This document shows positions 25,001 through 44,372 of a stretch of DNA of 63,965 nt, piece after piece; the stretch's first letter is position 1; each line of letters opens with the position of its first letter. The DNA comes from a virus (taxonomy: Duplodnaviria > Caudoviricetes): IMG/VR virus record IMGVR_UViG_3300037714_000156, positions 1 to 63,965 of that record. One strand, 5' to 3'. The notes under the pieces are model-generated. The model was given only the letters and a program-made list of their open reading frames with translations, searched no databases and was not told the origin of the DNA. Made by a program: the position numbers and the translations under genes.

Positions 25001-28000
25001 TGAGAGCTGAATTCAAAAGAGATAATCTTGATAAGCTCATTGATATACTTCAGAAAGATTTCGGAATATCCGTAAGACTATCACAGGAACAGATGAGGAA
25101 GATCAGCGATGATGATAACACCTTTCAGTTAAAACCAGGGAAGGCTTATAAAGATGATTTTAATAATAACATTCCCCCGATATTCAGTAAGCATCACGAA
25201 TATAAATTAAGCCATCCATATCTGAAGCATACGGAAGTTGAATTCGCACAGCCCAAGATAGCATTCTGGACGAGAGAACATATTAAATCTATTGGCTATA
25301 CAGACGCTTTTGTTAATACATTACCCAAATTAGAAAAAGGAGATTATGGTTATGAACAAGGAAAAGAAAAATTCGCAGTCGAAATTGCAGGATACTCCGG
25401 CTATGACCCTGAAGGGGGCGGGGCAATCATCATTGTCAGCAGCACAGCGACTCCATCTGCTTATACCGAAGAAATTATCCACACAATCCAGAAAAGACTT
25501 AAAACAGAAAATCCAGAACTCTTACAAAAAATTGAGCAATGGGAATCCATAGTAAAGAAAGAGGGTAAGGAATTCGGAGTAGAGATTCCAGATGGATATG
25601 AAACATTTGCACAAGCAATGGTATTCACTCATCTCGGATATGCAAATGAAAATCCGGATGTTGCTGAAGTATTTGAGATCCCGAAAGACATTCTTGATGA
25701 ATTCACAGCAATACTAAATCTTGGGAAAATATCTTCTGACGTATTAAAAGGAGAATCACAGAGAGGGATAATCAGACTGCCTTCCGGTAAGATTGACAAC
25801 TCATTACAAAACTTCCGGCAAAAACGACAGGGGACAGCGTTACAACTAAAACCGCCGGAAGATAAGAAACTAAGCAGAGCGAAGGGATTATATTCTCAGT
25901 TAAAATCAGAACTTGGAGAGAAAGCAGACGTTTATCCTGAATGGATTAAACAGATGAGAAAGGAATATGGCAAAGAGTTTGATAAGGAGGCGAGAAAAGT
26001 ATGGAAGGATATGAAAGAACCTGCGGGATTAACTGAAAAAGAATTTCAGAAAAAATATTACTCAAGACACATAGATATTCGGGGCAGAGGCGGGGAAGCA
26101 CTTGAGAACATTGAAAAAATAAAAAGAGAAGGATTCCACTCTGTTTATGCAAACGCATTGCCAATGGGCGTAGGAGAAGGAAAACCGGGTACGGAAACTA
26201 TAACAGACAAACAATATTCTGTTAGAAAAGGCGATGTAGTTTACCTGATTCCAAAAGAATATGTGCTGAATATAGGGACATCAAAACCGGAAAAAATAAA
26301 AGCAGGATGGAAGCCGAAAGACGAAGATATAGTAATTGCAGAATATGATAAACAACCATTATATGAACTTTACAAAAAGAAGTTTGAGCAACAATCATCA
26401 CACCAACTCAAACCTGCGTCCAAAGAATTAATCAATAAGGTCGAAGCCAAAGGGTTGATGATAGATCAGAACCTTGTTGCGACATATAACATAAAAGGTG
26501 AGCCGAGAGAATTCATATCAGTCAGTACACCTGGTCCGGGGCGGAAGCATACCTTATCTTTAGAGGTCAGCAAACTTGACGATGAATTAAAAAAATTCAC
26601 CGGAATAAAAAAATCAATGTTGCTATCTCCGAATGAGATATTATTAAATAGTAAAGGCAGATTCCCGACTCCACTTGCCATAGCAGAAGCCAAAGAAATT
26701 CTCAAAGATAAGTTTGACTCGGAATACCAGAAATTCAGGGAGGAGAATAAACCGCCCAAAAATTTCGATTTAATTTTTGAAGAAGGATTAATCTTAGAGA
26801 ATTTTGCCCGGAAAGTTGTTGCAGCAGATAAACTTGGTATAAAAGATATTAATGCTGATTTGTGGAGTGAGGCGACAAAGATTGAGCGACCAGGAAAATC
26901 AGCCTTCCAACTCAGGAAACCAAAGAAGGACCGGTCCGAAAAACTATTAGGTAAGAAAAAAGAAACAGAAATAGCCAGAGAACAGAACCGGGAACCCGAG
27001 AGCGGAGAAGGTAACGTAGTTGATTTCGGAGTTGGGTTAGGTCAGGTATTTACAGTCACGGCGGATAAGATAAATGATTTTATCAAGAACAACAGGCTTG
27101 AAAAAGAATTAGGAATAGAAGGAGACCCAAAACTAAGAAAGTTATACCGGGAATTTCTTACAGCTCCCCAATGGTTTTTCGATAAAGAACCGCAGTTGAA
27201 AAGAATATGGGATATTGTTGACAGACACTTCGTAAGAAATGTTAATGAAGAAACTGCAATCCTCAGAGAAGATAAATGGCAGAATGGAAAGCCCTGGAGA
27301 AAATTAAGCGAAACAGAGAAAACCGAATTCTTGTCTGCACTAAAAGAATATGAGCAAGTTCAATATGAACTTCAAAGAGACGGCGAATCTCTTGAGTTAC
27401 TTGATTGGGCTGATTACGCAGATGAACATGCTCTGACACCGGGAGTAACAGAATTATTATTCAATGTTTATAAACCTGTAATTGAAACCGCTCTTGATAT
27501 GGTTAAAGATGTTGACCGATATAAAATCATCAATGAGACGAAAGTAAATCCATATCTTGAAAATTACTACATAGCAAAAGAGAGCGGTGCAAGACAGGAA
27601 TTTCTTGATAACACATTAGAGAAAGCGAGAGAAGAATTCTTTAATGACGACCCTAATGCGGAAGCCCTTTACGAAAACGAATTATTAAGGATGGCAACGG
27701 GGAAAGCAGATCCGGTCAGAGCCTTAGAGTTAGCTTGGGGGAACAATCCAAATTTAAGAGAGACACTTGCAGAAGTATTAATCGGTAAGAAATATGAGAA
27801 GATAGACGGCAAAGTTTATTTCCCATCATCAAGATTAGAGAATAAATATTTCCTAAGTGCAATCAAGAAGTCAACGCCTGAAGAAAAACTTATTGAGGGA
27901 ATACAGGATGATAAATTCTTCACAACGAATAATAGCCTGGCAAAGCTGAACACTATAAAAGAGGAATTAGAAGCTCAGGGATATGACACTAAGGTAGGAA

Positions 28001-29967
28001 AGTTTGCAGAAGCTCAGCAGGAGATATTAAATAATGCGATCACTCAGGAAGATTTACTTGACTTGGCATTATCGGCAGGCATCGAGAACGATAATCCATT
28101 ACTTGAACGATTAGTAAAAACAATTCAGGCGAAAGGATTCAGCAGGCATTTCATTCCAAAAAGATTTATTCCGGGATTTGAATACACAACAGAGAATTTT
28201 GAGAAAGCAATCTTCAGATATATGAACTCTGTACCGTTTTATAAAAACAGAACGATAGGCGGAAAAGAATTCGGCAAGGTGATGGGGTTACTCAAACACA
28301 CCGGAGTATTAAAACCAGGGTCAGCGAATGATAAGTATCTTCAGGATCTAAGAAATAAAATTGAGAATAGAGATATAAAATTATCTCAGGCATTAAGGGC
28401 GGTAGCATCAACATATTATCTGGCGTTATCTCCTGCTTATTTATCTCAGCAGATCGTACAACCTCTTAATACATTACTCCCGTATCTCCCGATAGTAGCA
28501 AAAGAACTTGGATTAAGAGGAGCTGAAGCTGAAAAGGCATTTGGTGAGTCGTTAGCAACATCATTACAATATTGGGCTTGGAAAACTTATGACAAAATAA
28601 ACAGAATGACGGGCAGACCGACCAGGGGCAGATTCGGATTAGACCCTGAATTCTTGAGTATCATCAGATCGCTTGAGAGACAGGGAGTAGGCAAGCCATT
28701 AAGGACACTCGAATTAGCCGGTCATGAGGTTGACCCGCAGAAACATTATGATGCAAATCTTTTATCTAAAGGCGTGAGCGGAGTGGCGTGGTTAGGGAAG
28801 ATATCAGGTATGCCAGGTATTCTTGTTGAGGATTTCACACGGACAATCGGCATAAGAGCGTTATACCTGATGGGGAAAAAAGCAGGACTCAGGGGAGCAA
28901 AGATGGAGGACTTTATTTCAACAAACATTGCGAAAACTTTCGGTCCGGCTTCAGGAAGATTGGCGAAACCTCCTGGTTACTACATAGCCGGAGAAGGTAG
29001 AGCAAAACCAATGAAAGAGATTGCACAATCAACAATAGAGTCGTGGTTAACATTCAAGAATTTTGCATTTATGAATTACGGTCAATGGGGAAAAGTATGG
29101 AGAGCGTTAAAGAACGATAATATGTTCAGACCTTTAGCATATAAAACCGGGGCACAGATTGGATTGGGCGGAGTAAAATATATGATGTGGACTGCATCAA
29201 TACTTACTTTACTGAGTGGCATATACGCAATGCTCAATATAACAGAAGACCCGGAAGAACAATATGAGGACTTATTCAAACACTTCAATAAACTAGTTCC
29301 GGGATTAGGTGACGCACTATACAAAGGAATATCATCAATAACATTCAAGGTTGATCTATCCGCTCTGTTTGCTCAGACCGCACCATTAGAAGAACCGTTT
29401 ACGAAAGATGCTATTGAACTTATAGGCGGGGCTCCTGCATCTGCGATAAAAGATATAGTAACAGGTACACCACCGAGAGCGTTGAGAGGTTTTGAGATGG
29501 CGGAGAGATACGAAGAAGAAGGAGTAAAGTTAGGCAGCAGAAAACTTATTCCGTCGGATGAAGTATCTGAATCAGATAAAACAAAAAGGAAACTTGGATT
29601 TACCCCGTTAGATATTTCAGACACATATCAAAAAGAAAATACACGGCAGTTCAAGTCAAGTCAATACACAGATATCATCAGGAAGAAAGTTGCAGAAGAA
29701 ATTATCCCGATGATAAACGCAGGCAACGGAAGCCAGGCAAAAGAAGAATTCAAAAAATTATTTGCTGATATGAAAGCTGATAATGTTTTAACCGAAGGAC
29801 AATTAAAATCCATCGAGGGAGTGAATTCATTTATCTCCCAAGTTGTATTAACTCGTCTTGAAGGTGATGAGAGAGAGACAATAAAGACCTGGAAAAATAA
29901 AGGAGTAACTCCAAAGACCGACAGCAGAAACCGGGAAAGATCAACAAGCCGGGAAAGAACCCGCTAA
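16003..29967 (+). CDS. Giant polyvalent (DarB-like) ejected protein: InPase-like, DUF2958-like, N6-adenine MTase, Strawberry-notch/SF2 helicase and C-terminal membrane-associated region
   Basis: EAQKEAGNYKKGH...DYGYI...DHLDVF (InPase); VLEPSAGNG and ITNPPFG (MTase); GDMTGVGKGR, MDESHNA, QKRGRINRTGQ (helicase). Confidence 0.9.
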   Translation: MAKQPFDDLTKIADRIEQKYNLEWKDKEADTDVQDDLTGIAKRIENKYNASKQKTDPFTGITRPELTPDYGTSQDLFKLGQPPGDKPIQLKDTTAISESIKPPKTEGKDVFTEEEFDNQTRKMEGTLRLIKSLEDYQKGESVFGVPLPIQTVAERQKKIKDNPYLMTREEAEQFYSQNRHLLRDLTNTSRLMLKNIPAIGTIVNTLLYHVNPEGYQYAIADELRQNKSGIDQYADYAAEFSGSLAGLFSIGGGIHQGVNTIKAIETFAKTNKTIADAIAAFIAGTTYGGLSEAENLRLGLITPEGAIANSLASGVVWTAFTKVGTKDWLNLGKKITPTVLPEGQTLKGFVPKYKAVLNGQNVQVGYVKDKGFLTTRIANWFIDTGLVTATGTVSHKVAKAVDDSEKNDTPLVEELQKQFTELDLTQTGIEFALNAIFTGTIPRKYGKMPPPPIKGAKVEPRLLKPGEENIDATVRESMQPKPTGPQDVQRPTEVQPVPPPPVKPTVTPQEEIELTPEPAITEEPVQQRTIEDDAQALNILAQKMSRGETDFTPEELQLQQSYPNYIEGQLKQIKESPEYQEQQRVKRQQVKETTKSDNDTYAEITRRFKNAQRKGQLAGIESIREGVTTITTPEVRTKADELLKQVEQHNNKLREKNEFTLENLSKKIYGKTDLNTLTVEQQQGLLAEYNEMKKQGITEFRPLKGPDETPLIKGDKDAVQKRSPEKILQRQPEEIGEAGSERGGIQPIVKGQKITEAEEEGFLKKESDEETRILKPEDDLEVEPEPSEAQKEAGNYKKGHVERDGLDISLENLKGSTRSGTNKSGKKWEIELQNDYGYIKGTTGKDKDHLDVFLAEDYQEDSPVFIINQTTPDGKFDEHKVMLGFETMLQAEQAYNSNYEEGKAFHSDVIEMPMETFKVWSKEPLLTNKPAVDKTSIDNNKVAIQRMLKQGKSIKQIAKALNFSTDEVIKQGGLKDLAEYYEGDEAASILEDVKAGNVVTIDADAESKQEAMKRVNPTLYKLAQKSATVDDFIKAVAKSSKTSVENISAENLTEFYNRVEPIKKEVEAEVEPETNIATDAKGYPIVTDNYGYDHTIKLWGTHVVRTSPIKEEISESGIKTSNYTLGGSGWEWWGFKKQGDIWEGYVEGFENEFGTFLESELKENGIKIVTDPKELQELNPPIEWKWKQKKVTKPQKPQELPQELKAEKKPTKAPEPQVKPGKKSEKPSVIDDEMKNIIKDIEKGLEGITFQLKKPQQPEFKKDIGPKAVLGKKKPSFQLKPGEKIPSDVQTKANDLIGKFIDKEVYRFKDIVEATGNAFGEETLQRIFPALKAGYTAYLTNATDAETKEMDSFDIVKKFTLESPEGKEYDSLRKEVKQLLIDVNEMTPAQADYKLRGTNAATMAGWKKELTERAEAKGETGISRPFIQRVREEIRSGNQLNKTQLEKIANEFGITDPNVAKEQAELAIVAEARKIINESKNEKEAYDNIVELYNNQPNLTHRTNISVEKQQYSTPAPIAYIAGLFVADGVGNGDVLEPSAGNGMLVISFNTGQVYVNEIDSVRNTNLRQTGYEGIANIDAEKNDNIFGKKFDGIITNPPFGKSSGEKKFNDYKLNKLEHIMAANALKQMNADGRAAIIIGGHNSYDNKGRLQNDRIFFNWLNHYYNVEAVLNIEGDLYKKQGAQFPVRLILINGKKETPQGASPLYDAQKDAVIKDFEDLYNRVKEIRDETLLRPGDDVQRRPGGITDVRSPGGRKVQEPEGAETLPEVEVGRPDKEKPTKPSEVGEFGVRPSGTGKPVRGDTGTVGRPDSGKPTLPGSVPGGKAGQEGRRDIDTGRSGKDVQQGFDREPPSAIARAILEEGKPNLPYKAESKGVTLETVIPRNMAYETSKQLRNLAEDVGGDLDQFVADKLGYKDKEELYGYLGAEQIDATAMAIIAIEQGQGMIIGDMTGVGKGRIAASIIKYGVREGYKPVFFTEKADLFSDFYRDLVDTGSKDLIPFIVNNPSAKNSPNIVDEDGNLVHTALSGDKKSTILRIGDLGKYDFVLSTYSQVNSERSGLKRNFIEDLVRDNILVMDESHNASGDSNTGEFFRDLVRDAKGVTYLSATFAKRPDNMPVYAVKTAISEANLTEDGLVAAIEKGGVALQEILSTDMVEAGQMIRREKSYEGIKIDYKPLTEKKTEHTKIVDSVTEIIRDIIAFQKNHVNGIVDAMDNDAVMEGERIGVETGTNMAGIDNTPFASKVFNVVDQLLFSLKADSAADEAIATFKQGKKPVIAVKNTMESFLDYLGVQVGDIIENTDFSSVLERGLRGIFRIRRVDVTGESTPDELSINDLSEDGRKEYKRLLDKIKSTTVGITISPIDHIIYKLNKAGYKVGEITGRDITLKFRDDGKAIVEKRTEKDKKKTIRDFNNWENPGTPRGIDNYTEMALIVNASGSAGRSAHSSPKFKDQRQRKMVTVQVELNINTEIQKRGRINRTGQVNKPEYVTIASAIPAEQRLLMMAKKKLKSLDANVSSDQSQAGTTFEANDFLNKYGDRIVIEYLKENRELNDMLLDPLKMNIMNEEEIEKFTNKENAAHKVTGRVAILPTHLQEEFYKEIGFRYDDHIEYLNSIEENDLEVKIMPLEAMTTNSRMIVAGKGGVSPFGRDSMLETAEVNVLKKPFRIEKVNELLDKYLDGKGKDEKKKGIINDLRTFWKGWTEEHLNRKVQTIAKDLRIEKEDVVKYASRGLDGLPDLVIKYPHLLNKEVFVDTEFNKYRQLSERLEAQGNYVFNNILDRYDIGRAYKVPLVRDNVAPIYSNGIFLGWEISPKRRNPYAPSAIKMKFAVADSRQIAQFQGSNRDWLNDITSESSSLSAWQQKDMIEDWDNALSDHRREIKPIVTGNILQVMGGNDVKGGQLISYTTKDGGIKRGILIHDSKSIAGTDIRVPIKRARKYIQQLPLGDFIESSAGEIVIANTGNNYWEIEVPASKAKGGKFYLDEGMKGLVKDGRFDKVGNAMRAEFKRDNLDKLIDILQKDFGISVRLSQEQMRKISDDDNTFQLKPGKAYKDDFNNNIPPIFSKHHEYKLSHPYLKHTEVEFAQPKIAFWTREHIKSIGYTDAFVNTLPKLEKGDYGYEQGKEKFAVEIAGYSGYDPEGGGAIIIVSSTATPSAYTEEIIHTIQKRLKTENPELLQKIEQWESIVKKEGKEFGVEIPDGYETFAQAMVFTHLGYANENPDVAEVFEIPKDILDEFTAILNLGKISSDVLKGESQRGIIRLPSGKIDNSLQNFRQKRQGTALQLKPPEDKKLSRAKGLYSQLKSELGEKADVYPEWIKQMRKEYGKEFDKEARKVWKDMKEPAGLTEKEFQKKYYSRHIDIRGRGGEALENIEKIKREGFHSVYANALPMGVGEGKPGTETITDKQYSVRKGDVVYLIPKEYVLNIGTSKPEKIKAGWKPKDEDIVIAEYDKQPLYELYKKKFEQQSSHQLKPASKELINKVEAKGLMIDQNLVATYNIKGEPREFISVSTPGPGRKHTLSLEVSKLDDELKKFTGIKKSMLLSPNEILLNSKGRFPTPLAIAEAKEILKDKFDSEYQKFREENKPPKNFDLIFEEGLILENFARKVVAADKLGIKDINADLWSEATKIERPGKSAFQLRKPKKDRSEKLLGKKKETEIAREQNREPESGEGNVVDFGVGLGQVFTVTADKINDFIKNNRLEKELGIEGDPKLRKLYREFLTAPQWFFDKEPQLKRIWDIVDRHFVRNVNEETAILREDKWQNGKPWRKLSETEKTEFLSALKEYEQVQYELQRDGESLELLDWADYADEHALTPGVTELLFNVYKPVIETALDMVKDVDRYKIINETKVNPYLENYYIAKESGARQEFLDNTLEKAREEFFNDDPNAEALYENELLRMATGKADPVRALELAWGNNPNLRETLAEVLIGKKYEKIDGKVYFPSSRLENKYFLSAIKKSTPEEKLIEGIQDDKFFTTNNSLAKLNTIKEELEAQGYDTKVGKFAEAQQEILNNAITQEDLLDLALSAGIENDNPLLERLVKTIQAKGFSRHFIPKRFIPGFEYTTENFEKAIFRYMNSVPFYKNRTIGGKEFGKVMGLLKHTGVLKPGSANDKYLQDLRNKIENRDIKLSQALRAVASTYYLALSPAYLSQQIVQPLNTLLPYLPIVAKELGLRGAEAEKAFGESLATSLQYWAWKTYDKINRMTGRPTRGRFGLDPEFLSIIRSLERQGVGKPLRTLELAGHEVDPQKHYDANLLSKGVSGVAWLGKISGMPGILVEDFTRTIGIRALYLMGKKAGLRGAKMEDFISTNIAKTFGPASGRLAKPPGYYIAGEGRAKPMKEIAQSTIESWLTFKNFAFMNYGQWGKVWRALKNDNMFRPLAYKTGAQIGLGGVKYMMWTASILTLLSGIYAMLNITEDPEEQYEDLFKHFNKLVPGLGDALYKGISSITFKVDLSALFAQTAPLEEPFTKDAIELIGGAPASAIKDIVTGTPPRALRGFEMAERYEEEGVKLGSRKLIPSDEVSESDKTKRKLGFTPLDISDTYQKENTRQFKSSQYTDIIRKKVAEEIIPMINAGNGSQAKEEFKKLFADMKADNVLTEGQLKSIEGVNSFISQVVLTRLEGDERETIKTWKNKGVTPKTDSRNRERSTSRERTR
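18152..18325 (+). CDS. Nested +1-frame gene: 57-aa basic protein MPYKSEAQRKYFNANRKKLEKQGVNVEEFNQSSKGKKLPKRKKKDSLKKKVMKKLGY
   Basis: AAAGGAGA RBS just upstream; resembles small phage proteins starting MP[FY]KSxAQ; below the ORF-track length cutoff. Confidence 0.7.
   Translation: MPYKSEAQRKYFNANRKKLEKQGVNVEEFNQSSKGKKLPKRKKKDSLKKKVMKKLGY
21188..21580 (+). CDS. Nested +1-frame gene: 130-aa acidic helical protein
   Basis: AAGGAG RBS at 21175-21180; globular-looking composition while the host frame is a G/R/P-rich linker over the same span. Confidence 0.7.
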   Translation: MKLYYDPEMMSNEDQAELLMCEVPEDAKFKNPKELKPYLKWRLEDLIKKSPQSLPKLESLVYDLLEQENPYVETPEQLADLILESPHYQEVFQVVKQDKKDAETLTQEEAEKMFNKVSIESLLQLLQEQF

Positions 29968-30326: not shown

Positions 30327-31022
30327 ATGATACGATACATACAGAAAGACGAACCATTAAATATCAATCACTATGCACTCGAAGGTGGTGACAGTTCCTC
30401 CGGTAACTCTCCTATACAAATAAAAGTATTACCATTCAAAAGCTGTTATCCTCACAATAGAGGAGAGTCCTTCAAAATATGGGAAAGAATAGCTTGCGTT
30501 TGTTTCCCGTATGACATATATCATTCAATAAAATTTGATGAAATGGAATTCGGGACTCAGAAATATATTCCCGAATATACAGTAAATCATTGGGTGCAGG
30601 GGAATGGTGATTTTGTTTTTACTTCTAAGACAGGAAGAAACTTATTCAGGCATGATAAAGCCGTCGAAGCCATTATGAAAGTTCTGAAAGATACAATCAT
30701 CCCGGAGATCAACAACATAATAAAAATGAAAGCGGATCTTACGAAAATGATGGAATGCTTCCCCGATTTGCTGAAAGACAAAGAACTATCGGGGATTAAA
30801 TCAGATATTATGAACATAAAAGATTTTGTCGGATGGTTCCCAAAAGATTTTCCTCTCGACAAAAATGATTCATTGATGAGTGCTTTTGCCAAAATGGATG
30901 AGAGGTTTGCGAAGGTAGAAAAACAAGTAAACGATATTAACAAATACCTTGACTCTGAGATTCCGGTTATTCTGCCAACAAAACCTCCTCGTATAATAAA
31001 GAGAAAGAGAGCAGGGAAATGA
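30327..31022 (+). CDS. Hypothetical early protein, possibly regulatory
   Basis: 231 aa, AGAAAGGAA RBS, C-terminal coiled coil. Confidence 0.6.
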   Translation: MIRYIQKDEPLNINHYALEGGDSSSGNSPIQIKVLPFKSCYPHNRGESFKIWERIACVCFPYDIYHSIKFDEMEFGTQKYIPEYTVNHWVQGNGDFVFTSKTGRNLFRHDKAVEAIMKVLKDTIIPEINNIIKMKADLTKMMECFPDLLKDKELSGIKSDIMNIKDFVGWFPKDFPLDKNDSLMSAFAKMDERFAKVEKQVNDINKYLDSEIPVILPTKPPRIIKRKRAGK

Positions 31023-31267
31023 GCGAGTCTATAACTATATGCAAAAGTTGTGGAGAGAAAGCACACGGAGAGGATATTGATATGATGTATTGCAGGCATT
31101 GTGACCAACACGTAATTTTTATAGAAATATCAGATTGTCCGGTATGCGGAGGAAGCGGTTCGGTTGATGAAATTGATACTGAAAAAGTAAACGGACAAAC
31201 AACAACTCCACCATATCACAAGGTTGGATGTAATACTTGCAACGGAGAGAGTTGGGTAGAGGCATAA
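31019..31267 (+). CDS. Zinc-finger protein with DnaJ-type CxxCxGxG motifs
   Basis: CKSC, CRHC, CPVCGGSG, CNTCNG. Confidence 0.7.
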   Translation: MSESITICKSCGEKAHGEDIDMMYCRHCDQHVIFIEISDCPVCGGSGSVDEIDTEKVNGQTTTPPYHKVGCNTCNGESWVEA

Positions 31268-31470
31268 TGAAAATTAAAATATCTTATTGCTTAGACGATA
31301 ACTACCATCCAGAGGGAAAGTGTGTTGCACAGGCTCGTAAGGAAGGAAAGTTATTTATAGGACACGGTGATAATTTTGATGACGCAAAAGAATCGCTTAT
31401 CAAAGTTATTAGAAAAGATATTGAAGAAAGAAAGATGATAATACCACCAGACGAAGAAGTAGAGCTATGA
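31267..31470 (+). CDS. Small HicB-like protein
   Basis: FIGHGDNFDDAKESLIKVI resembles the HicB GxT/N-EEA motif; TAATG coupling. Confidence 0.45.
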   Translation: MKIKISYCLDDNYHPEGKCVAQARKEGKLFIGHGDNFDDAKESLIKVIRKDIEERKMIIPPDEEVEL

Positions 31471-32081
31471 CAAACGCACAAGCAAATATATTGACCTATA
31501 ATGATTCTAAGCACGAATACAAAGTTAATGGAGTAATAGTCCCATCAGTAACGCAGTCAATCAAAACAGCAGGGTTGATTGATTTATCATTTGTAGATAA
31601 AGAATTACTTGAATACAAATCAGACATAGGGAATAAAGCTCACAAGACAACAGAACTTTATGACACAAACAATCTTGATGAAACTACTCTGCATCCTATG
31701 TTGTTTGGATATTTACAGGCTTGGAAGAAATTCAGAGCAGACTATCAATTCAAACCAATCCATATTGAGTTAGCAATGGTTCATAAGTTATACAGATATG
31801 CAGGAAGGATTGATCGGATTGGGACGATAGAAAATACCACACACATTATTCAGGCTGATATTAAGACCGGAGTAAAGCATCATTCATACGCTATTCAATC
31901 AGCAGGATATGTTGAACTATATAATTATGGTAAGCCAAAGAAAGAACAAATCAAGAGAAGGTTCACCGTTTACCTTAACGAAGACGGCACTTACAAAGTA
32001 GATGAACACAAAGATAAAACAGACATATCAATATTTTTAGCAGCATTATCAATTACAAATTACATGAGGAACCATAAATGA
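31467..32081 (+). CDS. PD-(D/E)XK exonuclease (RecB/Cas4-like phage exonuclease)
   Basis: VPSVTQ, GNKAH, YAGRIDRI, DIKTG, QSAGY. Confidence 0.85.
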   Translation: MTNAQANILTYNDSKHEYKVNGVIVPSVTQSIKTAGLIDLSFVDKELLEYKSDIGNKAHKTTELYDTNNLDETTLHPMLFGYLQAWKKFRADYQFKPIHIELAMVHKLYRYAGRIDRIGTIENTTHIIQADIKTGVKHHSYAIQSAGYVELYNYGKPKKEQIKRRFTVYLNEDGTYKVDEHKDKTDISIFLAALSITNYMRNHK

Positions 32082-32770
32082 AGAACGTGAAAGGAAACAG
32101 TATCAGCGTAAACATTGATACCACCAAAGAGAAACAAAAAACCGCCGATGTTCCGGCATTGTGCAAGAAAGCTGAATTAGTTATCACCAACCAGGAGCAA
32201 TACAATGTTGCTACGGATGTGTTGAAGGATGTCAAGGCACGGTACAAAGAACTCGACACACAGAGAAAGAGTATTACCCAACCTCTCGACGAAGCTAAGA
32301 AACAGGTTATGGAATTGTTTCGGATGCCCTTAGAACTATTGGATGGTGCGGAAAAGAAAATCAAAGGATTGATGATAGGATATACCAATAAAAAAGAGCA
32401 AGAAGCGAGGGAAGAACAGGCTCGGTTGCAGAAACTCGCTGATGCCGAAGCAGCAAAACAAAAAAAGATTTTAGATGAAAAGATTGCAAGGGCAGAAGCA
32501 TCCGGGAAAAAAGAGAAAGTTGAGGAACTCGAAGCACAGAAAGATGCAGTAGTCTCTATTGCTGTTCCGGTAATATCTTCAAACATTGACACACCGACAG
32601 GGCTTTCTTATCGGGAGAAATGGAGTGCAATTATTGTTGATCCGAACCTTATTCCGAGAGAATACCTGATCGTAAATGAAAAAGCATTGGAAAAAATTGC
32701 ACAGGCGACAAAGGGAAGTCTTCAAATACCGGGGGTAAGATTTGAGAAAAGCAAGGTAGTGGTAGCATAA
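32078..32770 (+). CDS. Coiled-coil Gp157/Mu-Gam-like protein
   Basis: RKSITQPLDEAKK; IVDPNLIPREYL...IPGVRFE C-terminus. Confidence 0.65.
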   Translation: MKNVKGNSISVNIDTTKEKQKTADVPALCKKAELVITNQEQYNVATDVLKDVKARYKELDTQRKSITQPLDEAKKQVMELFRMPLELLDGAEKKIKGLMIGYTNKKEQEAREEQARLQKLADAEAAKQKKILDEKIARAEASGKKEKVEELEAQKDAVVSIAVPVISSNIDTPTGLSYREKWSAIIVDPNLIPREYLIVNEKALEKIAQATKGSLQIPGVRFEKSKVVVA

Positions 32771-32956
32771 CACCATAGGGCTTAACGGGAAGCCCAGAAA
32801 GGAAGCAAATGAAATATTATAAGATTAAATATAGTTGCGGATGTGAGTATGAAGGGCACAATCCATCATCTCCAAGATGCCCTTCAGACCATAATTCCAA
32901 TATTGTAGAATATGCCTGGGAGGATGATAGCTTGCCCGTTGAAGCCAAAGTTAGCA
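32765..32956 (-). mobile_element. attC-like site A, inverted; loop holds the RBS and 5' end of ORF 32809
   Basis: GCATAAC...GGCTTAACGGGAAGC pairs with GCTT(G)CCCGTT(G)AAGCC-aaa-GTTAGCA; two unpaired bases 6 nt apart. Confidence 0.75.
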
Positions 32957-33168
32957 ATGCAAATGGCGGCGACCTTGAAAGACAAGAACAATTATTAGGG
33001 TTGCTTTATAGGTTTGCTGAGTGCCAGAAAAATAAAATTGGTAAAGAAATTAGGTACACACAAAAAGATAAAAACATTAATCCCGAAATAAAACATATTT
33101 ACAGCGTGGGCGATTATTTAGGAAAGATATTAGAACTGTTTGGTAAAAAAGTAATACCGATAGACTAA
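32809..33168 (+). CDS. Cassette-borne hypothetical protein
   Basis: AGAAAGGAA RBS; lies wholly in unit 32771-33185; the attC arm encodes SLPVEAKVS. Confidence 0.65.
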   Translation: MKYYKIKYSCGCEYEGHNPSSPRCPSDHNSNIVEYAWEDDSLPVEAKVSNANGGDLERQEQLLGLLYRFAECQKNKIGKEIRYTQKDKNINPEIKHIYSVGDYLGKILELFGKKVIPID

Positions 33169-33179
33169 GCCGTTTGTCT

Positions 33180-33221
33180 TGCTAACATTCAGATGAACCT
33201 TGTTCGATCTGATAGTTATGC
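33180..33221 (-). mobile_element. Minimal attC-like site (resident insertion platform)
   Basis: TGCTAAC-at-TCAGATGAAC-ctt-GTTC(G)ATCTGA-ta-GTTATGC; GTTATGC is complementary to GCATAAC at 32765. Confidence 0.7.
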
Positions 33222-33255
33222 GACTAAAAAAGTATAAGAAAGGAAACACAACAAA

Positions 33256-33456
33256 ATGAAAAAGCAGACATCAGTAAAAAAACAATTTAAGAAATTGTTG
33301 GATGACACAATTAGGTCTGCGGAAGAATATGGCAGTAAAAAAGAAACCAAAGAAATGGCGACAAATTATATAGCAGGGGCTTTAAGCATACTTAAATGGA
33401 ACAAAAGGAAATTGAACACATTTGTTAATAAAAATTTTCTAAGGAAAGTAAAATGA
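33256..33456 (+). CDS. Hypothetical protein
   Basis: 66 aa, AGAAAGGAA RBS. Confidence 0.6.
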   Translation: MKKQTSVKKQFKKLLDDTIRSAEEYGSKKETKEMATNYIAGALSILKWNKRKLNTFVNKNFLRKVK

Positions 33457-34148
33457 AAACACAAGCAAGAAAGAAAAAACCACCAGTAAAGAAGAAACCC
33501 AGACTAACACCGGAGAAAGCATTTCTCAAAGCATTTTTAGCTTTGCAAAGTGAATTGCCGGAGTTAAAGAGAACGGAGAAAGTCAACGGGGGCGAACATA
33601 CATATTCATACACTCCATTACCTGTAATGAGAAAGGTATTACAGCCCTTACTAACCAAACACGGATTTGTATATGCTTGGGACTCAAAGGAAGTAAGCAA
33701 TAACAGGATAGAATACACTTGCATACTTACCCATATTGAAGGACACTCAAAAAGTTCAAGCATAATAGCCGATAAGGACAGCACGGCGGATATGAATAAT
33801 GTTCAGGCAGTTGGTAGCACAACGACATACTTGCAGAGATACACGCTTAAAGCCGTTCTCGGATTAACTTCTGCCGATGATGATGATGATGGGAAGTCAG
33901 CAGGGAAGAAGAATAAAAAAGAAGAAATTCCGGGACCGAACGCTCTCACACAGTCAACAAATGGCTATGAGAATATGGATATAGAATCTCTGATGATATT
34001 AACGGACAAAAAAGTAGTGAAGGATTTTATTAAAAAGAAATACAAGAAAGATGAAATGAACTTGTTTGGATTTTCTGATATTGAAAAATACGAGATAAAA
34101 GAATTCCTGATAAAAACTATAAAAGAAAACGAGAAACCGAGGAAGTGA
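33453..34148 (+). CDS. erf: ERF-family single-strand annealing protein
   Basis: YSYTPL, LTKHG, QAVGSTTTYLQRYTLKAVLGL...DDDG. Confidence 0.88.
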   Translation: MKTQARKKKPPVKKKPRLTPEKAFLKAFLALQSELPELKRTEKVNGGEHTYSYTPLPVMRKVLQPLLTKHGFVYAWDSKEVSNNRIEYTCILTHIEGHSKSSSIIADKDSTADMNNVQAVGSTTTYLQRYTLKAVLGLTSADDDDDGKSAGKKNKKEEIPGPNALTQSTNGYENMDIESLMILTDKKVVKDFIKKKYKKDEMNLFGFSDIEKYEIKEFLIKTIKENEKPRK

Positions 34149-34354
34149 AATTGCCCGAAGACATAACGCTCAGGGATTATTTTGTAGCTCATATCGTGGA
34201 GGGAATATTATCTAATGAGTTTGAGACCTTAGAATTATTCAAAGGTAAGACGAAAGAAGAAGCGGTTAAAGACCTTGCTAACGCTGTATATAAAATAGCA
34301 GATGCTTTAATAGCGGAAAAACAAAGGAGAGAGGGAAAGAAGGGAGATGATTAA
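34145..34354 (+). CDS. Conserved small phage protein
   Basis: TLRDYF...AVYKIADALIAE motif. Confidence 0.7.
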   Translation: MKLPEDITLRDYFVAHIVEGILSNEFETLELFKGKTKEEAVKDLANAVYKIADALIAEKQRREGKKGDD

Positions 34355-34568
34355 ATACTTTATTTTTTTAATTCTATCACTTGTGATTGTTGCAGGTTTT
34401 CACGTGTTGGTGATAACTCTTGCTGATATTGAGACTGATGTGAACAATCCATCAACTTGGGTATTCATTTTTATTATGTGTTTTAACTTAGTCATAACTG
34501 AAAAAACATTCACTCATTGCTATAAACAATATCTACATTCAAAAGAAAAAGGAGAAAAATTCCTATGA
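34347..34568 (+). CDS. Small membrane protein
   Basis: Two hydrophobic segments, coupled start. Confidence 0.55.
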   Translation: MIKYFIFLILSLVIVAGFHVLVITLADIETDVNNPSTWVFIFIMCFNLVITEKTFTHCYKQYLHSKEKGEKFL

Positions 34569-35584
34569 TAAAAACAATCAAAGCAAACCGGATAAACATT
34601 GATAAGCGGGGGAAGATCACAACGGGGATAAAAAAGAAATCAGAATCAACCGGGAAAGAATATCCGGCAACAACGGATTATTTTGTTATTGACGATTTTC
34701 CAGAACTGAAACCTATCTATGGTGAGAAGCCGAAGAAATTAGTTGTTGTTTTCCCGACAAACATCATGATAGATTTCTTTACCGTAGACTATGTGCTTTA
34801 CGGTTCCAACAACACTATGATTCGTAAGTGTGATGGTGAGGAATGCATGCATCGTATTGACGAAGAACTGTTATTGGTATCAACACTTGATGATGAAGGG
34901 AACGCACAGGAGTCAGAACATCGTAATAAAAAATACATTGCCGGAGAATTATCAGAATGTTGCTGCAAGTTGATGGCACAGACCATTGATAAGAACGGCA
35001 AAGAAGCTAAGAACCCAAAACATTGTAGTTGTGCAATGTACCTGAAAGCATTTCTCGTTGATTACAAAACAAAGAAAATCATATCTCCTTTGTGCTATCA
35101 TTTCTATTCTGGCAGCGAGAACACGGCAGCGAACATTTACAGCGAACTCACAAAAATACAGACAATGATGAACGGCAGAATAGCAGGATTACCGTTTGGT
35201 TTGTCGGTAGATATGGTTCCCGGTAAGACAAATGCTAAGATAAAATACCCGATCTGGACATTGCAAATATTAGGGACGATGGCACAGCTTGAACAGGCAG
35301 CAGAATCCTTCCTGTTTGATTACCGGGAGATATTGCAGATCGGTAAAGACACACCAAATCAATTACCTCAAGGAGATAACGAAACGCTGAACAAAAATCT
35401 TACTGATGAAATACAAGAAAAGCTCAACCCCGATTATTGGGTAAATGAAATTAAAAAACTAAAATCAGCAAGTGCTATTGATAAGTTTGAGAAAAGCTAT
35501 TCCCTTGAATTATCTCAATTTGGCGGGGAGGATGAAGTAAAGATTCTCCAGGCATTTGAACATCAAAGAAATCTATATCAATAA
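34565..35584 (+). CDS. Gp3-like ('recombination directionality factor-like') protein
   Basis: GKITTGIKK...YPATTDYF, RKCDG, Cys-rich middle, GRIAGLPFGL. Confidence 0.65.
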   Translation: MIKTIKANRINIDKRGKITTGIKKKSESTGKEYPATTDYFVIDDFPELKPIYGEKPKKLVVVFPTNIMIDFFTVDYVLYGSNNTMIRKCDGEECMHRIDEELLLVSTLDDEGNAQESEHRNKKYIAGELSECCCKLMAQTIDKNGKEAKNPKHCSCAMYLKAFLVDYKTKKIISPLCYHFYSGSENTAANIYSELTKIQTMMNGRIAGLPFGLSVDMVPGKTNAKIKYPIWTLQILGTMAQLEQAAESFLFDYREILQIGKDTPNQLPQGDNETLNKNLTDEIQEKLNPDYWVNEIKKLKSASAIDKFEKSYSLELSQFGGEDEVKILQAFEHQRNLYQ

Positions 35585-35593
35585 GGATGCAGT

Positions 35594-35791
35594 ATGACTA
35601 TTATATTAATATCTTGGCTGATCGGCGGGACTCTTGTTGCGTGGGTTATTATAAGAGCAATCAGGAAGGGAAAGAGGCTACGGAAAGAGATGGATGATAT
35701 TTATAAAGATGCCCTTCGCAAAACAGGAGGAGGTAAATCGGGGATTAAAAAATTTGCAGTTTGGAAATTACGTGAGCATAATTTGAATTAG
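35594..35791 (+). CDS. Small membrane-anchored protein
   Basis: N-terminal TM, basic tail. Confidence 0.5.
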   Translation: MTIILISWLIGGTLVAWVIIRAIRKGKRLRKEMDDIYKDALRKTGGGKSGIKKFAVWKLREHNLN

Positions 35792-35851
35792 TAAGTTGTC
35801 ATAAAGACAGTAATAAATCATCAACAAACAACAAAAGGAAAGAGGTTATTT

Positions 35852-36301
35852 ATGCCGGGAAAAAACAAAAACACAGGTAAAGGCAAGAAGGCTGACAAAG
35901 TGAAAAAGGAAAAGGCTTCTAAGAAAGATAAGAAAGAAGTTGTTCAGCAGAGTCCGCCAGACGGTCAAATGAGCCACGTACAGATTATTTCTAAAGAAAA
36001 GAAATTGACCGTACAGGAAACCGCCGATTGCGGTTCTGAGCTTGCACAGGAAGAATTACAGTTGGACCAGGTGCGAAAGGAAAAGAAAGAAACAAATCGT
36101 GGATTCGACACCACCATCAAAGATCACCTTGTTAAGATTATGCAATTGTCTCAAGCGATTGATACCGGAATTCTTACTACTAACATCGAGTGTGACGTTG
36201 TTCTTGAGCGGGAAAAGGAGAGAAAGGTATGCTATCCGAAAAGCGGAGAAGAATCTTTCATCCTGCCAATGACACCGGACGATTACGATCTTCTTACTTA
36301 A
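35852..36301 (+). CDS. Hypothetical protein with Lys-rich N-terminus
   Basis: 149 aa, GAGG RBS. Confidence 0.65.
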   Translation: MPGKNKNTGKGKKADKVKKEKASKKDKKEVVQQSPPDGQMSHVQIISKEKKLTVQETADCGSELAQEELQLDQVRKEKKETNRGFDTTIKDHLVKIMQLSQAIDTGILTTNIECDVVLEREKERKVCYPKSGEESFILPMTPDDYDLLT

Positions 36302-38193
36302 TGAATGAGAAGATAGAAATAGTAAGAAAATCCATCAAGGAACTTGCGGGAGTATGTGACTACGCAAGTTCTGTTGATGGTGCAGGGTTTAACAAAACCG
36401 ATACAGGCTTCGGTCATTCCCTTGCGACACAGGAGACCTGGACTGATAAGCAGGCTAAATATGCTTGCAGGCTTGTAATTAAATATCACAAACAACTTCC
36501 TCATGTGGATGTAAATATTATTAGGGAATTAATGGGACAGCTCGAAGAAAGAATCCAAAAAGTTGAACTGTATAAAGAAACACAAATCACCATCTCACTA
36601 CTTACAACCAAAGAAGGAATTAAGAAGTTAGCCGTTGTGCTACCATACAATAAACAAGCGGTAGATAAAATAAAAACCTTAGAAGGAAGAAAGTGGAACG
36701 CTGAACTATTGCGATGGGAATTGACTATTCAGAACCTTCAAAGATTAAAAGAAATGTTTCCATTAGCGACATTTTCCGACGGCATAAAGGATTATGAAGG
36801 ATTGCGTGAGCAAAAGGATAAGTTAATATCAGAGGAATTCAAAAAGATTTCTGCTGATATTGATTTAACCAAACAATTACCAAACGGGAAAACGCCCTTC
36901 AAGCATCAGCAAACAGGAATACTAAGGATGCTGAAATACCGGAGACAGATCCTCGCAGACGATATGGGTTTAGGAAAAACACTCCAAGCCCTGGTAGTAG
37001 CAAAAGAATTGTCAAAGCATTATGGTTCACAGATCATAATAATATGCCCGGTATCATTAAAAGAGAATTGGGCGAGAGAGGCTAAGTCAATAAAAATACC
37101 TGTTGGGAAGATATCAATATATTCTTGGGCGAAAATTCCTGAACCGGGAACCAAGGAATATATAATGATTGCTGATGAGGCTCATTATGCACAGGCGGGA
37201 ACAAAAACATTAAGAGGGAAAGCATTCCTGAAACTTGCAGGACACGATAACTGCAAAGCGTGTTATTGTTTAACCGGCACACCGATAAAGAACGGAAGAC
37301 CTATAAATATCTTTCCTTTGCTTCAAGCGACACGGCACGAATTAGCAGGGGACACAAGATATTTTCAGACAAGATTCTGCAATGCTCATCTTCGGGAATT
37401 GGGAAGAAAGAATAAGAGGATAAAATTTTGGGACACAAGCGGTTCATCACATCTGGACGAACTTCATCAGAAGACAACAAATATTATGATACGCCGGACA
37501 AAAAAAGAATGCCTGGATTTACCGGACAAGCTCAGGGTACTTAGGGAAGCTGAATTATCCCAAGAATCTATTGACCTTTATAATAGAACATTGGATGATC
37601 TAAGAAACCGATACCAGGAAAGAATTAAGAGCGGAGAAATTAAGGATGATGCAGAAGCAATGGTAATGTTACAGCACTTAGCACACGCAGGAGCAATAGG
37701 CAAGGTTGATAGTGCTTACGAATTAGCGGAAGAAGTAGTTGAGGAAGGAAACCAGGTAGTTATCTTTTCAACATTCATCGAACCTCTAAAAACATTAAGA
37801 GATAAATTCAATAAAGCAAATATCCCGGTTGATATGCTGATCGGTGAAACCAAAGAGCGTCAGAAGCTCGTAGATAATTTTCTCGCAGGGAAAAGCAGAG
37901 TATTCTTATTGAGTATGGCGGGAGGAGTAGGTATTGATCTTTACACAGCAACAACAATCATATTAATAAATAGGGCGTGGACTCCGGGAGACGTACTTCA
38001 GATCGAGGACAGACTGCACAGGATAGGACAGAAAAATCAGGTAACATCAATATGGTTGCAGCACGGAGAGGTTGATATACACGTTGATGCAATACTCGAA
38101 TCCAAGAGTATGAATATATCCCAAGTGCTTCAAAGCAAAAACCGGGAAGATGATGTTATCACATTCGCAAAGAAATTTTTTAAGGGTAATTAA
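36301..38193 (+). CDS. SNF2/HARP-like helicase
   Basis: LADDMGLGKT, IADEAH, LTGTP, QIEDRLHRIGQ; start at the TAATG overlap 36301. Confidence 0.92.
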   Translation: MNEKIEIVRKSIKELAGVCDYASSVDGAGFNKTDTGFGHSLATQETWTDKQAKYACRLVIKYHKQLPHVDVNIIRELMGQLEERIQKVELYKETQITISLLTTKEGIKKLAVVLPYNKQAVDKIKTLEGRKWNAELLRWELTIQNLQRLKEMFPLATFSDGIKDYEGLREQKDKLISEEFKKISADIDLTKQLPNGKTPFKHQQTGILRMLKYRRQILADDMGLGKTLQALVVAKELSKHYGSQIIIICPVSLKENWAREAKSIKIPVGKISIYSWAKIPEPGTKEYIMIADEAHYAQAGTKTLRGKAFLKLAGHDNCKACYCLTGTPIKNGRPINIFPLLQATRHELAGDTRYFQTRFCNAHLRELGRKNKRIKFWDTSGSSHLDELHQKTTNIMIRRTKKECLDLPDKLRVLREAELSQESIDLYNRTLDDLRNRYQERIKSGEIKDDAEAMVMLQHLAHAGAIGKVDSAYELAEEVVEEGNQVVIFSTFIEPLKTLRDKFNKANIPVDMLIGETKERQKLVDNFLAGKSRVFLLSMAGGVGIDLYTATTIILINRAWTPGDVLQIEDRLHRIGQKNQVTSIWLQHGEVDIHVDAILESKSMNISQVLQSKNREDDVITFAKKFFKGN

Positions 38194-38326
38194 ATGAAAA
38201 GCAAAATTAAAAACTTTTTTCAAGTCTTGATTTATTGGTTGATTGTGATTGGGGTTGGTGTACTTGTATTAGCCTTATTAGTGGGGTTGTGGTATTTAGA
38301 TCACGTAAGATTTATATGGTGAAAAA

Positions 38327-38584
38327 ATGAGTGTTACACCTTTACAGTTAGAACAATTAAAAGAATTTGAAGAAGAATATTTTCAGACTTCCGGGATATG
38401 CTTTCAATTTACTTATTCAAAAATTAGAAAGAAATGGGTTGCCTATACCTTCGGGAAAAAGTTTGAGGACGCAGACTTCTTCAAGATGCTTAACAAGGTA
38501 ACTGACTACATTATAAAAAATAGAATCCCGACTAACAAGGAAAATTATCAATTCAAAAATAGATTTTGGGTTAGGAAAAACTAA
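38327..38584 (+). CDS. Hypothetical protein
   Basis: 85-aa ORF in the operon. Confidence 0.55.
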   Translation: MSVTPLQLEQLKEFEEEYFQTSGICFQFTYSKIRKKWVAYTFGKKFEDADFFKMLNKVTDYIIKNRIPTNKENYQFKNRFWVRKN

Positions 38585-39367
38585 ATGCCGAGAGGAAGAA
38601 TGTTAAACAAAAAGATAAGTTTCGATGAAGTTGTCGCCAAACTTTCACTCAAGTCAGCACTTTTTTTCAGTTGGAGCATCGCACATCTCGATGTTGGAGG
38701 GAAAATTTTAGGTGATCTCAACTATTTGAAGGGAAATATTGTCCCGTACCGACAAGATTTTACTGTAAAAGACATACAAAAGTGTCTTGATGAACTCTCT
38801 GATGCAGGTCTTGTTATTGTCTATGGAGATACTCATAAGTATCTGAAATTCAAAGGGTTTGAGAAGAATCAAAAGGTAAATGTAGATAAAGAAGCACAAT
38901 CGGAAATACCCAACCCTACTCCAGAGCAACTCCAGAGCAATTCCAGAGTAACTCCCGGTAAAGTAAAGGGAAGTATAAGTTTAAGGGAAGGGAAAGACGG
39001 CGGAGTAGATCCTCCGCCTTCCCCCTTTTCTTCTATACTCGATGTTTGGAATTCTTTCGCTAAGAAGAACGGATTAGCAACGATAGTTAGTCTTTCAGAT
39101 AAAAGAATAAAATCAATAGACAAACGAGAGAGAGAAAAAAAATTTAATCTACAAAGTATATTTGACGAAATTGAAAAGAGCGAGTTCTTACGAGGGAAGA
39201 ATGATCGGGGGTGGAAAGTTGATTTTGATTTTGTTTTTTGTAGTGCTAACAATTATCTAAAAATCTTAGAAGGAAAGTACAGAACAAATGGAACAAATAG
39301 GAAGCAAGATCGGGGAAGTGTTGACATCAATAAGTACATCGAAGAAGCCGACACAATCATTAAGTAA
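38585..39367 (+). CDS. Phage replication initiator (replisome-organiser type)
   Basis: MPRGRMLNK...D.GG N-terminus; GWKVDFDFV...YLKILEGKY C-terminus; internal tandem repeat. Confidence 0.75.
   Translation: MPRGRMLNKKISFDEVVAKLSLKSALFFSWSIAHLDVGGKILGDLNYLKGNIVPYRQDFTVKDIQKCLDELSDAGLVIVYGDTHKYLKFKGFEKNQKVNVDKEAQSEIPNPTPEQLQSNSRVTPGKVKGSISLREGKDGGVDPPPSPFSSILDVWNSFAKKNGLATIVSLSDKRIKSIDKREREKKFNLQSIFDEIEKSEFLRGKNDRGWKVDFDFVFCSANNYLKILEGKYRTNGTNRKQDRGSVDINKYIEEADTIIK
38918..38955 (+). repeat. 11-bp tandem repeat (x3.5), candidate origin iterons
   Basis: ACTCCAGAGCA ACTCCAGAGCA ATTCCAGAGTA ACTCC within the initiator gene. Confidence 0.7.
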
Positions 39368-39884: not shown

Positions 39885-39969
39885 CAGTTGTTATAATAGC
39901 GTTAATTTGCGTTACCATTATATCTATCGTTGGTCTGATTTTAATTTATATGGATGGGAGGAAAAAGAA

Positions 39970-40275
39970 ATGAAAGCAGAAGTAATATTTCTGACGGAAG
40001 AAGATTTAATAAATAATTTTACAAGCCATTGGTTAGAGTTTGTTATTTACGCCCGATCAGAAAAAACCGTAGCAATTAAAGTCAGGAACAAAGAGGAAAA
40101 CCAAACCATTGGGATAATCGCCTGGTATAAAGAATTCAGAGCTTACGCCTTTAGACCGTTCCCATCAACAGTTTTTGAACGTGTATGTTTGCGGGATATT
40201 ACAAATGTTCTTGAGGAACTAGAAAAAATCAGGAAAGGCAGAATAACAAAGCGAAGGAATAAAAATGAAAGTTGA
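39970..40275 (+). CDS. Hypothetical protein
   Basis: GGGAGG RBS before ATG 39970; IGIIAWYKEFRAYAFRP...CLRDI. Confidence 0.6.
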   Translation: MKAEVIFLTEEDLINNFTSHWLEFVIYARSEKTVAIKVRNKEENQTIGIIAWYKEFRAYAFRPFPSTVFERVCLRDITNVLEELEKIRKGRITKRRNKNES

Positions 40276-44369: not shown

Positions 44370-44372
44370 ACA

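Follow-up and report, generated by a model that had tools for sequence, protein, structure and literature searches.

A candidate reversed integron-type gene cassette, with its gene start inside an attC-like site, in the recombination module of an uncultured phage

In the complete record of an uncultured tailed phage (IMGVR_UViG_3300037714_000156; 63,965 bp, with direct terminal repeats; hereafter the window), a variable gap separates a gene for an exonuclease-like protein from a gene for an ERF-family single-strand annealing protein. On balance, we consider it probable that a 415-bp segment of this gap (32771-33185, plus strand) is one reversed integron-type gene cassette, in which a folded site resembling the attC sites of integrons stands in front and a small gene, open reading frame (ORF) 119, stands behind. 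In integrons, which are bacterial gene-capture platforms, the recombination site of a cassette, to our knowledge, always follows its gene; where cassettes come from is an open question. The phages considered here look lytic, contain no integrase, and have folded sites of the same design, turned round and translated into protein.

The site at this locus, site A (32765-32956, plus strand, 192 nt), combines an AAC box and a GTT box with a 15-bp stem and two bulges; numbered from the end of the 3' box, these are at positions 16 and 23. It opens with the 5' R box GCATAAC (32765-32771), which includes the stop codon TAA (32768-32770) of the upstream gene and the first proposed crossover point, between A32770 and C32771. 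A 7-nt spacer (32772-32778) leads to the 15-nt 5' arm of the L stem, GGCTTAACGGGAAGC (32779-32793), and then to a loop, or variable terminal structure, of 136 nt (32794-32929), which holds a ribosome-binding site (RBS; AGAAAGGAA), an ATG at 32809, and codons 1-40 of ORF119. The 3' arm, GCTT(G)CCCGTT(G)AAGCC (32930-32946), bears the bulged bases G32934 (position 23) and G32941 (position 16). After the triplet AAA comes the 3' R box GTTAGCA, which together with its extension forms inner box 2, GTTAGCAATGCAAATGGC (32950-32967); it is translated as VSNANG, and its GTT is in frame as codon 48. ORF119 as a whole (32809-33168, plus strand) consists of a loop-encoded head (amino acids 1-47), a site-encoded linker, and a start-less tail (amino acids ~53-119). 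Directly 3' of its stop codon lies inner box 3, GCCGTTTGTCTTGCTAAC (33169-33186), which pairs with inner box 2 and contains the second proposed crossover point, between A33185 and C33186. The right half of the putative landing pad is a small hairpin (33187-33221), which reads AT-TCAGATGAAC-CTT-GTTC(G)ATCTGA-TA and is followed by GTTATGC (33215-33221); its stem spans 33189-33212, a bulged G occupies position 16, and its z-score is -3.32.

The way in which these boxes pair is what points to an exchange between A and C of AAC. The two inner boxes form 15 Watson-Crick pairs in 18 positions, with two G.T wobbles and one mismatch in addition (ungapped count), and the outer boxes, GCATAAC and GTTATGC, are complementary at all seven positions, whereas the boxes that are now adjacent within each site at locus A pair at only four of seven. 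The long stem of site A is part of the minimum-energy DNA fold on both strands (z = -2.95 on the plus strand and -2.35 on the minus strand), and models with swapped partners fold better than the present arrangement. When 32771-33185 was removed by script slicing, a hairpin of 42 nt with fully paired ends (7/7) resulted, at -11.3 kcal/mol versus -7.3 for the present 41 nt; similarly, a circular junction model, in which the cassette is closed on itself, reached -37.4 kcal/mol versus -28.4 for site A as it stands. A first-pass annotation made from the letters alone had proposed this decomposition. The strings that it quoted for site A were all found in their places, its count of 15 paired positions in 18 was exact, and the hairpin of about 42 bp with perfect ends that it expected after removal of the insert was recovered, overlapping the stop codon of the upstream gene as it had claimed.

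According to the mechanism that we propose, site A would act as a folded single-strand hairpin of the attC kind, with the AAC and GTT boxes closing an R stem, followed by an unpaired spacer, the L stem, and a large loop, and with the flipped-out L-stem bases at positions 16 and 23 facing the AAC arm. Because it is the coding (plus) strand that folds like the "bottom strand" of an integron site, the site sits in front of the gene and the unit is reversed. A tyrosine recombinase supplied in trans, either a host integron integrase or an Xer-like enzyme of related phages, would bind the folded plus strand, cut between A and C of AAC, and exchange strands with a second folded site. The unit would have entered a small AAC...GTT hairpin located behind the stop codon of the upstream gene.

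Judged by its sequence, site A truly belongs to a family of attC-like sites in phages. Six sites with strict geometry were identified, all on the coding strand: A, B and C in the window, D in a related phage (G001; 66,436 bp, the only relative found), and F and G in a 5,818-bp fragment of a third phage (L010), which was reached through a conserved spacer motif and carries sites H, F and G in a row. Site H, the seventh, has one mismatch and the bulge order of the others, (T) and then (G), 6 bp apart (positions assigned by eye); the base of its arms, GGCTT/AAGCC, is identical to that of site A. The bulged bases are G16 and G23 in A, G16 and T23 in B, C and F, and G16, A20 and T24 in G; in D, the bulges occupy positions 15 and 22. 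From AAC to the bulge junction there are 12 nt in A, B, C, D and G and 11 nt in F; on the GTT side, the distance from box to bulge is 8 nt in the strict-geometry sites except D, in which it is 7 nt. The AAC-side and GTT-side spacers measure 7 and 3 nt in A, 10 and 6 nt in B, C and G, and 9 and 6 nt in F. The sites are 192 (A), 219 (B) and 191 nt (C) long in the window and 122-128 nt long in the other phages (D, F and G).

Sites B (44681-44899) and C (45062-45252), together with the genes that they bracket, occupy 44681-45492 on the plus strand, and they are preceded by half-site I (44494-44687), which has a 3' arm GCAG(T)CAGCTT(G)AACC, a GTT box at 44514 inside ORF98, and a partner box at 44670-44687. 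The claim that site A has the same geometry as the sites at 44.7-45.5 kb proved correct, since all of them place the bulge junction 12 nt after AAC and have their bulges at 16 and 23. Another proposed link, an arm-plus-RBS string common to sites A and C, exists but carries little weight: GCCCAGAAAGGAA occurs exactly twice in the window, at 32792 and 45089, and on its own this repeat is weak evidence because 9 of its 13 bases belong to the early-gene RBS. Sites B and C have in common a 20-nt stretch, TATAACAGATTGGGCGATAA, and their arms are different yet complementary, which indicates that the stems covary while the spacers stay alike. Site F has the same arms as site C of the window, with a different and shorter loop, and site D follows the same design with a different sequence. 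Site D is located at L009 6121-6243 (in G001; the locus continues in L006 1-375), and the gene that follows it looks SET-domain-like by eye. Behind that gene, half-site E consists of an AAC box, a spacer and a 5' arm, which has TAACGGGAA in common with the 5' arm of site A, and lacks a 3' arm. On L010, the three consecutive cassettes run from 4987 to 3593 on the minus strand, and their cargo, named by eye from the translations, comprises a Lar-like zinc-ribbon protein, a 57-aa ORF and a DNA methyltransferase with a DPPY motif. A wider version of the spacer motif found only L010 and G001 in IMG/VR. A 19-20-nt version, run against 596 billion genome bases, gave six matches, none with site structure, where about eight were expected by chance according to our own estimate; these matches were discarded.

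One rule holds in all eight brackets of the family (A, B, C, I, D, H, F and G): 10-17 Watson-Crick pairs join the GTT-box extension to the sequence that ends in the following AAC box, one gene away. In half-site I, this bracket is made of 15 Watson-Crick pairs, one wobble, one mismatch and one indel. That extensions should pair one gene apart, even where adjacent boxes of the present arrays pair at only four of seven positions (A, C and G), is the footprint that circular permutation during cassette exchange would leave. The R stems contain G.T wobbles on the plus strand (two in A, ungapped; one each in I, D and H), which fit folding of that strand; the other mispairs, one each in A, I and G, are plain mismatches that would be unpaired on either strand.

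The same features could also reflect a function of the stems in mRNA, where long-range pairing would control translation, coupling, processing or stability and the boxes would serve as protein-binding RNA motifs. Every site lies on the coding strand, the 5' arm stops right before the RBS, the loop of each full site contains an ORF start, and the wobbles, which would be G.U pairs in RNA, fall on the plus strand. However, this explanation does not account for poor pairing of adjacent boxes next to good pairing one gene apart, for the complementary outer boxes at locus A, or for the attC-like distances; heads and tails, moreover, are exchanged at the boxes, and no Rfam family matched the window or the locus. 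We regard an mRNA role as quite improbable.

The sequence features of site A are well beyond chance. In the strict scan, a site was required to have AAC, 8-13 nt to the bulge junction, a contiguous 5' arm and a 3' arm of at least 3 bp, with the order bulge, 6 bp, bulge, 2 bp and then 6-9 nt to GTT on the 3' side. The window yielded three sites (A, B and C), all on the plus strand, and 100 dinucleotide shuffles of it, scanned on both strands, gave a mean of 0.13 and a maximum of 2. A TAAC-hairpin-GTTA element with a span of 20-45 occurs once on the real plus strand, exactly at 33183-33215, directly behind the cassette; in 200 shuffles, six were found per 53,129 TAAC boxes, or 1.1e-4 per box. 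The first, loose geometry scans were close to chance at low thresholds (6 at a score of at least 9, versus 2.9 in shuffles), so the signal lies in the exact geometry. Similarly, a scan for box pairs at its loosest threshold was near chance (14 versus a shuffle mean of 6.2 and maximum of 13), and the box-pair argument therefore rests on coincidence with the hairpin sites and not on the number of pairs. Matches without an AAC box, four extra against 1.87 expected, were taken as chance. The small hairpin was also considered as a terminator and rejected as such: it has no T run behind it, and the terminator scan did not call it. Two promoter-like sites were detected in 32000-34000, at 32883-32911 and 33425-33454, neither of them at the boxes, compared with 4.8 in shuffles.

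The resemblance to the attC sites of class 1 and Vibrio chromosomal integrons can be set against published rules. In the available portions of one account of attC structure (PMC5027507), the folded bottom strand is cut within its R box, at A|C of AAC, and the extrahelical bases lie opposite the AAC arm; they are usually G16 with a last T at 23 or 24, in some sites with a third at 20, and attCoxa2 has G16, A20 and T24. A 6-bp stem separates the extrahelical bases, each spacer arm is 5-6 nt, and lengths range from 57 to 141 bp (PMC5027507). As far as these portions go, the phage sites are alike in being folded single-strand hairpins with an R box closed by AAC and GTT triplets, a spacer and an L stem, in keeping structure while sequence varies, and in following the rules on bulges and on their 6-bp spacing; site A has G16 and G23, and the pattern of site G is that of attCoxa2. 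They are alike, too, in that the ends of the cassette are complementary to each other, in eight brackets of eight. Conversely, the phage sites differ from attC in their order and content: in seven sites of seven the site precedes the gene, overlaps its start and has the coding strand as the bulged strand, an RBS, a start codon and as many as 47 codons lie within the loop, translation runs through the arm and R box, and the R stem reaches 10-18 bp. In contrast to a complete integron, the phage has no integrase and no attI.

A close precedent is provided by the phage CALINs, that is, clusters of attC sites without an integrase: 17 were reported in 10,705 phage genomes, and some of their sites proved active with IntI1 (Qi et al., 2023, PMC9892861). 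The likeness extends to attC-type sites, to small cassettes that include DNA methyltransferase genes, and to integrase-less phages (PMC9892861). In the part of that report available, the CALINs have the usual gene-then-site layout, some with divergent sites, and neither a gene start inside a site nor a chimeric protein is mentioned (PMC9892861). CALINs are defined by at least two close attC sites; locus A comprises one full site and a small atypical hairpin, and the second cluster, formed by I, B and C, lies at 44.5-45.5 kb. In a search for literature on integron-like hairpin cassettes in phages, reversed cassettes with the gene start inside the site appeared in no title among the matches listed. 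Other phage elements resemble the locus in some respects. The PeSL cassettes of T4-type phages are small accessory genes in hyperplastic regions, with repeated structured motifs on their flanks to which gene shuffling is attributed; PeSLs are repeats of an early promoter and a stem-loop before each ORF, and they recombine by homology. Compared with PeSLs so defined, the sites described here have no promoter-like site at the boxes, vary in sequence, and show attC geometry.

The protein encoded by ORF119 provides evidence of another kind. A full HMMER search against 1.84 billion representatives returned 11 matches: ORF119 itself, three heads, two giant proteins and five tails. When compared as proteins, amino acids 1-47 are ~90% identical in two of the heads (P0002 and P0003), and the first ~33 residues recur in the third (P0004); these proteins come from ENA or Logan, and each of them has an unrelated tail. 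P0002 and P0003 break with ORF119 at the Val encoded by GTT. Three of the tails (P0039, P0043 and P0044) are stand-alone proteins of 66-74 aa that start just where the box in ORF119 ends, and the other two carry other heads. In the AlphaFold2 model (mean predicted local distance difference test score, pLDDT, of 68), a small sheet is followed by a disordered stretch and a helix-hairpin-helix tail; residues 40-53, which are encoded by arm, spacer and box, have a pLDDT below 50 and separate the two folded parts. Since the head recurs with other tails, the tail stands alone elsewhere, and a disordered linker lies between them, ORF119 is a head-linker-tail chimera whose tail has no start of its own and whose first third is encoded by the site. 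No Pfam or PHROG family was found for ORF119 or its relatives, Foldseek comparison of the model with PDB gave no match at E <= 0.001, and a search for DNA of the head module in IMG/VR, JGI metagenomes and GTDB genomes found nothing. The giant proteins, P0038 (2339 aa) and P0042 (2923 aa), match residues 24-68 in 6-7 stretches each (E = 9.5e-9 and 1.3e-6), which could be a repeat or low-complexity likeness.

These protein data also accommodate a mirror-image decomposition, in which site A and the head would be resident and the mobile unit would be 32951-33215, comprising the start-less tail and its own small hairpin, with exchange at G|TT. Cassettes would then have the classical order, gene before site, and insertion would fuse an incoming tail in frame to a resident head. 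One head is indeed found with different tails, with the break at or right after GTT in P0002 and P0003; GTT is in frame at codon 48 in A, 47 in C and 48 in I; and the tail family, start-less here, is stand-alone elsewhere. The start of such a cassette (TTAGCAATGC...) pairs with the box before its own small hairpin, and the site left over would close GCATAAC with GTTATGC, seven of seven. As far as the boxes are concerned, this reading fits equally well and is disfavoured only by the side of the bulges: the published rule places the cut AAC opposite the bulges, and thus the crossover at the plus-strand AAC boxes and not at GTT. The small hairpin, moreover, has no second bulge and no unpaired spacer, and the genes bracketed by sites B, D and F have their own RBS and start, so that fusion is not needed. 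We consider this arrangement unlikely.

A number of observations weigh against the interpretation of 32771-33185 as a captured cassette, besides the fact that the mirror decomposition accounts for the box pairings just as well. The first group concerns the sites themselves. AAC and GTT are present in all seven full sites, but the attC consensus RYYYAAC/GTTRRRY is only partly matched, with one and two deviations in site A. Set against the accessible sections of PMC5027507, the second bulge of site A is a G and not the usual T, the AAC-side spacer is 4-5 nt too long (12 nt from box to bulge versus 8), and sites A, B and C, at 191-219 nt, exceed the 57-141 range within which D, F and G fall. The proposed pad departs further from the family, with one bulge (G16) and no second one, a spacer that is mostly paired, and 8 instead of 12 nt on the AAC side.

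The second group concerns the event. The first-pass annotation had suggested searching relatives and reads for the empty junction or for other cassettes at this position, and no empty or excised form was found in IMG/VR or in four sequencing runs. A blastn search of GenBank phages with 31400-35600 (11-base words), aimed at an empty or differently filled allele, gave no match. In IMG/VR, the upstream protein, used alone and as an alignment, retrieved one relative, G001; an exact scan found the left junction only in G001, and the pad string in no other contig. Among the contigs of the four runs covering 31000-46500, none joined across 32771-33185; one run, X1, is probably the source, in the other three (X2, X3 and X4) the phage is represented by short contigs only, and missing coverage carries no weight. 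At locus A, G001 carries two unrelated ORFs and lacks both a hairpin site and a pad. DNA homology between the two phages stops exactly at 32770 (GCATAA|C), which is also a stop codon, a common place for joints in mosaic phage genomes, and resumes at 33442, so that the right breakpoint coincides with the ERF start and not with the pad. Finally, the head of site C (39 aa, window ORF 45108) occurs in another, AT-rich phage, at L004 1063-1450 and L005 514-880 (~93% nucleotide identity by eye), with two different tails in an otherwise identical backbone and no hairpin arms, so that heads can be swapped without a hairpin site.

Several of these points would fit ordinary mosaicism, in which general or illegitimate recombination at gene borders exchanged one accessory gene for another and the repeats are due to chance or to a plain terminator. 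The unrelated genes of G001 in the gap, with breakpoints at a stop and a start codon, the movement of the site C head without hairpins in L004 and L005, and an ORF in the gap (ORF66) whose first 18 nt are those of the G001 ERF gene are what this explanation would expect. It is nevertheless disfavoured by the statistics (three sites in the strict scan against 0.13 expected), by the occurrence of the same design in two other phages, by the bracket rule (8/8), and by the small hairpin, which is rare (1.1e-4 per TAAC box) and has neither a T run nor a terminator-like call. We consider mosaicism of this sort very improbable.

The enzyme is a further point against the cassette interpretation: no tyrosine recombinase (PF00589, E <= 1) was detected in the window phage (G000), in G001 or in the 5.8-kb L010 fragment, in a search that recovered the family in 14 of 14 control genomes. 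This lack of a recombinase in either complete genome favours some other structure-guided DNA process, such as annealing or template switching by the exonuclease and ERF proteins, a cruciform-cutting nuclease or an HUH-type enzyme, in which case the attC-like numbers would be convergent. The position of the cassette inside a recombination module (PD-(D/E)XK nuclease, exonuclease-like protein and ERF), R stems of 10-18 bp that far exceed a 7-bp R box, and a spacer asymmetry unlike that of attC argue in the same direction. On the other hand, annealing-driven exchange requires no bulges, and the combination of AAC and GTT with bulges at exactly 16, 20, 23 and 24 and 6-bp spacing, in six of seven sites, is hard to explain without an IntI-like reader protein. 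A Y1 HUH transposase (PF01797, E <= 1) was found in neither G000 nor G001, which also separates the locus from hairpin elements of the IS200/IS605 type. We hold such a process to be rather unlikely.

Taken with these points, the integron-type reading of locus A, as a cassette variant that is reversed and has its start codon inside the site, is one to which we give moderate confidence. The first-pass annotation had gone further, in proposing that a minimal attC-like pad in the phage backbone captured a 415-bp cassette and that this independently supports the system. The box complementarities do fit an exchange at AA|C and the small hairpin is non-random; the empty allele was not found and the pad is atypical. 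A single capture into a 42-bp landing pad would be a coherent model that is only partly supported, and the locus lends support to the site family but not to a dated, single capture event. What locus A adds is a pair of complementary outer boxes, absent from the larger array, which predict a precise empty site and make the capture model directly testable.

It is also possible, and we suggest it only tentatively, that the sites constitute a device for both protein building and gene shuffling, in which exchange at the boxes makes in-frame head-tail chimeras of early phage proteins. The loop would supply an RBS, a start and a head of 40-47 codons, and the arm and R box would be read in the fixed frame (G)AA-xxx-xxx-GTT, which puts Val at codon 47 or 48 of three genes in the window; cargo genes would have lost their own starts, and one head could be joined to many tails, or one tail to many heads. 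If the sites are active, phages would trade small early genes by integron-type exchange, and the cargo, which includes MazG-like, Lar-like and DNA methyltransferase-like genes (the last two assigned by eye), has plausible counter-defence functions. A recombination site could then double as natural coding sequence, which, according to the available part of one report, has so far been shown only with designed sites (PMC7439510). Active sites would, in addition, allow the recombinase that reads attC-like hairpins outside bacteria to be sought with natural substrates.

All long ORFs of the window are on the plus strand, and locus A is situated inside a recombination module that also includes the PD-(D/E)XK nuclease gene (31467-32081) and a Gp3-like gene. 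The upstream backbone gene (32078-32770, plus strand, 230 aa), whose stop TAA falls inside the 5' R box, had been labelled Gp157-like. This label was not retained: the protein has no Pfam Gp157 match even at E <= 10 and matches phrog_10477 ("exonuclease") at 3.9e-31; it is 84% identical to its counterpart in G001. On the right, the ERF-family gene (33453-34148, plus strand; Pfam ERF, 1.2e-21) is preceded by ORF66 (33256-33456, plus strand), which is outside the cassette but inside the variable gap and is absent from G001. The 18 nt with which ORF66 opens (within 33250-33272), AAAATGAAAAAGCAGACA, are identical to the start of the G001 ERF gene (L002 5280-5300), and the window's own ERF start differs from them; the 5' end of ERF may have been duplicated when ORF66 arose. 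Further downstream, one X2 contig joins 35584 to 35784, leaving out 199 bases that separate the Gp3-like gene from the ORF after it; this is the single joint listed for 31000-46500 across the four runs, and it may represent an allele without that spacer. Two short segments, 42541-42574 and 43314-43362, are covered in all four runs by many unrelated contigs with loose ends on both sides and are probably conserved motifs common to other organisms. A single ORF of 4,654 aa (16003-29967) takes up 22% of the genome.

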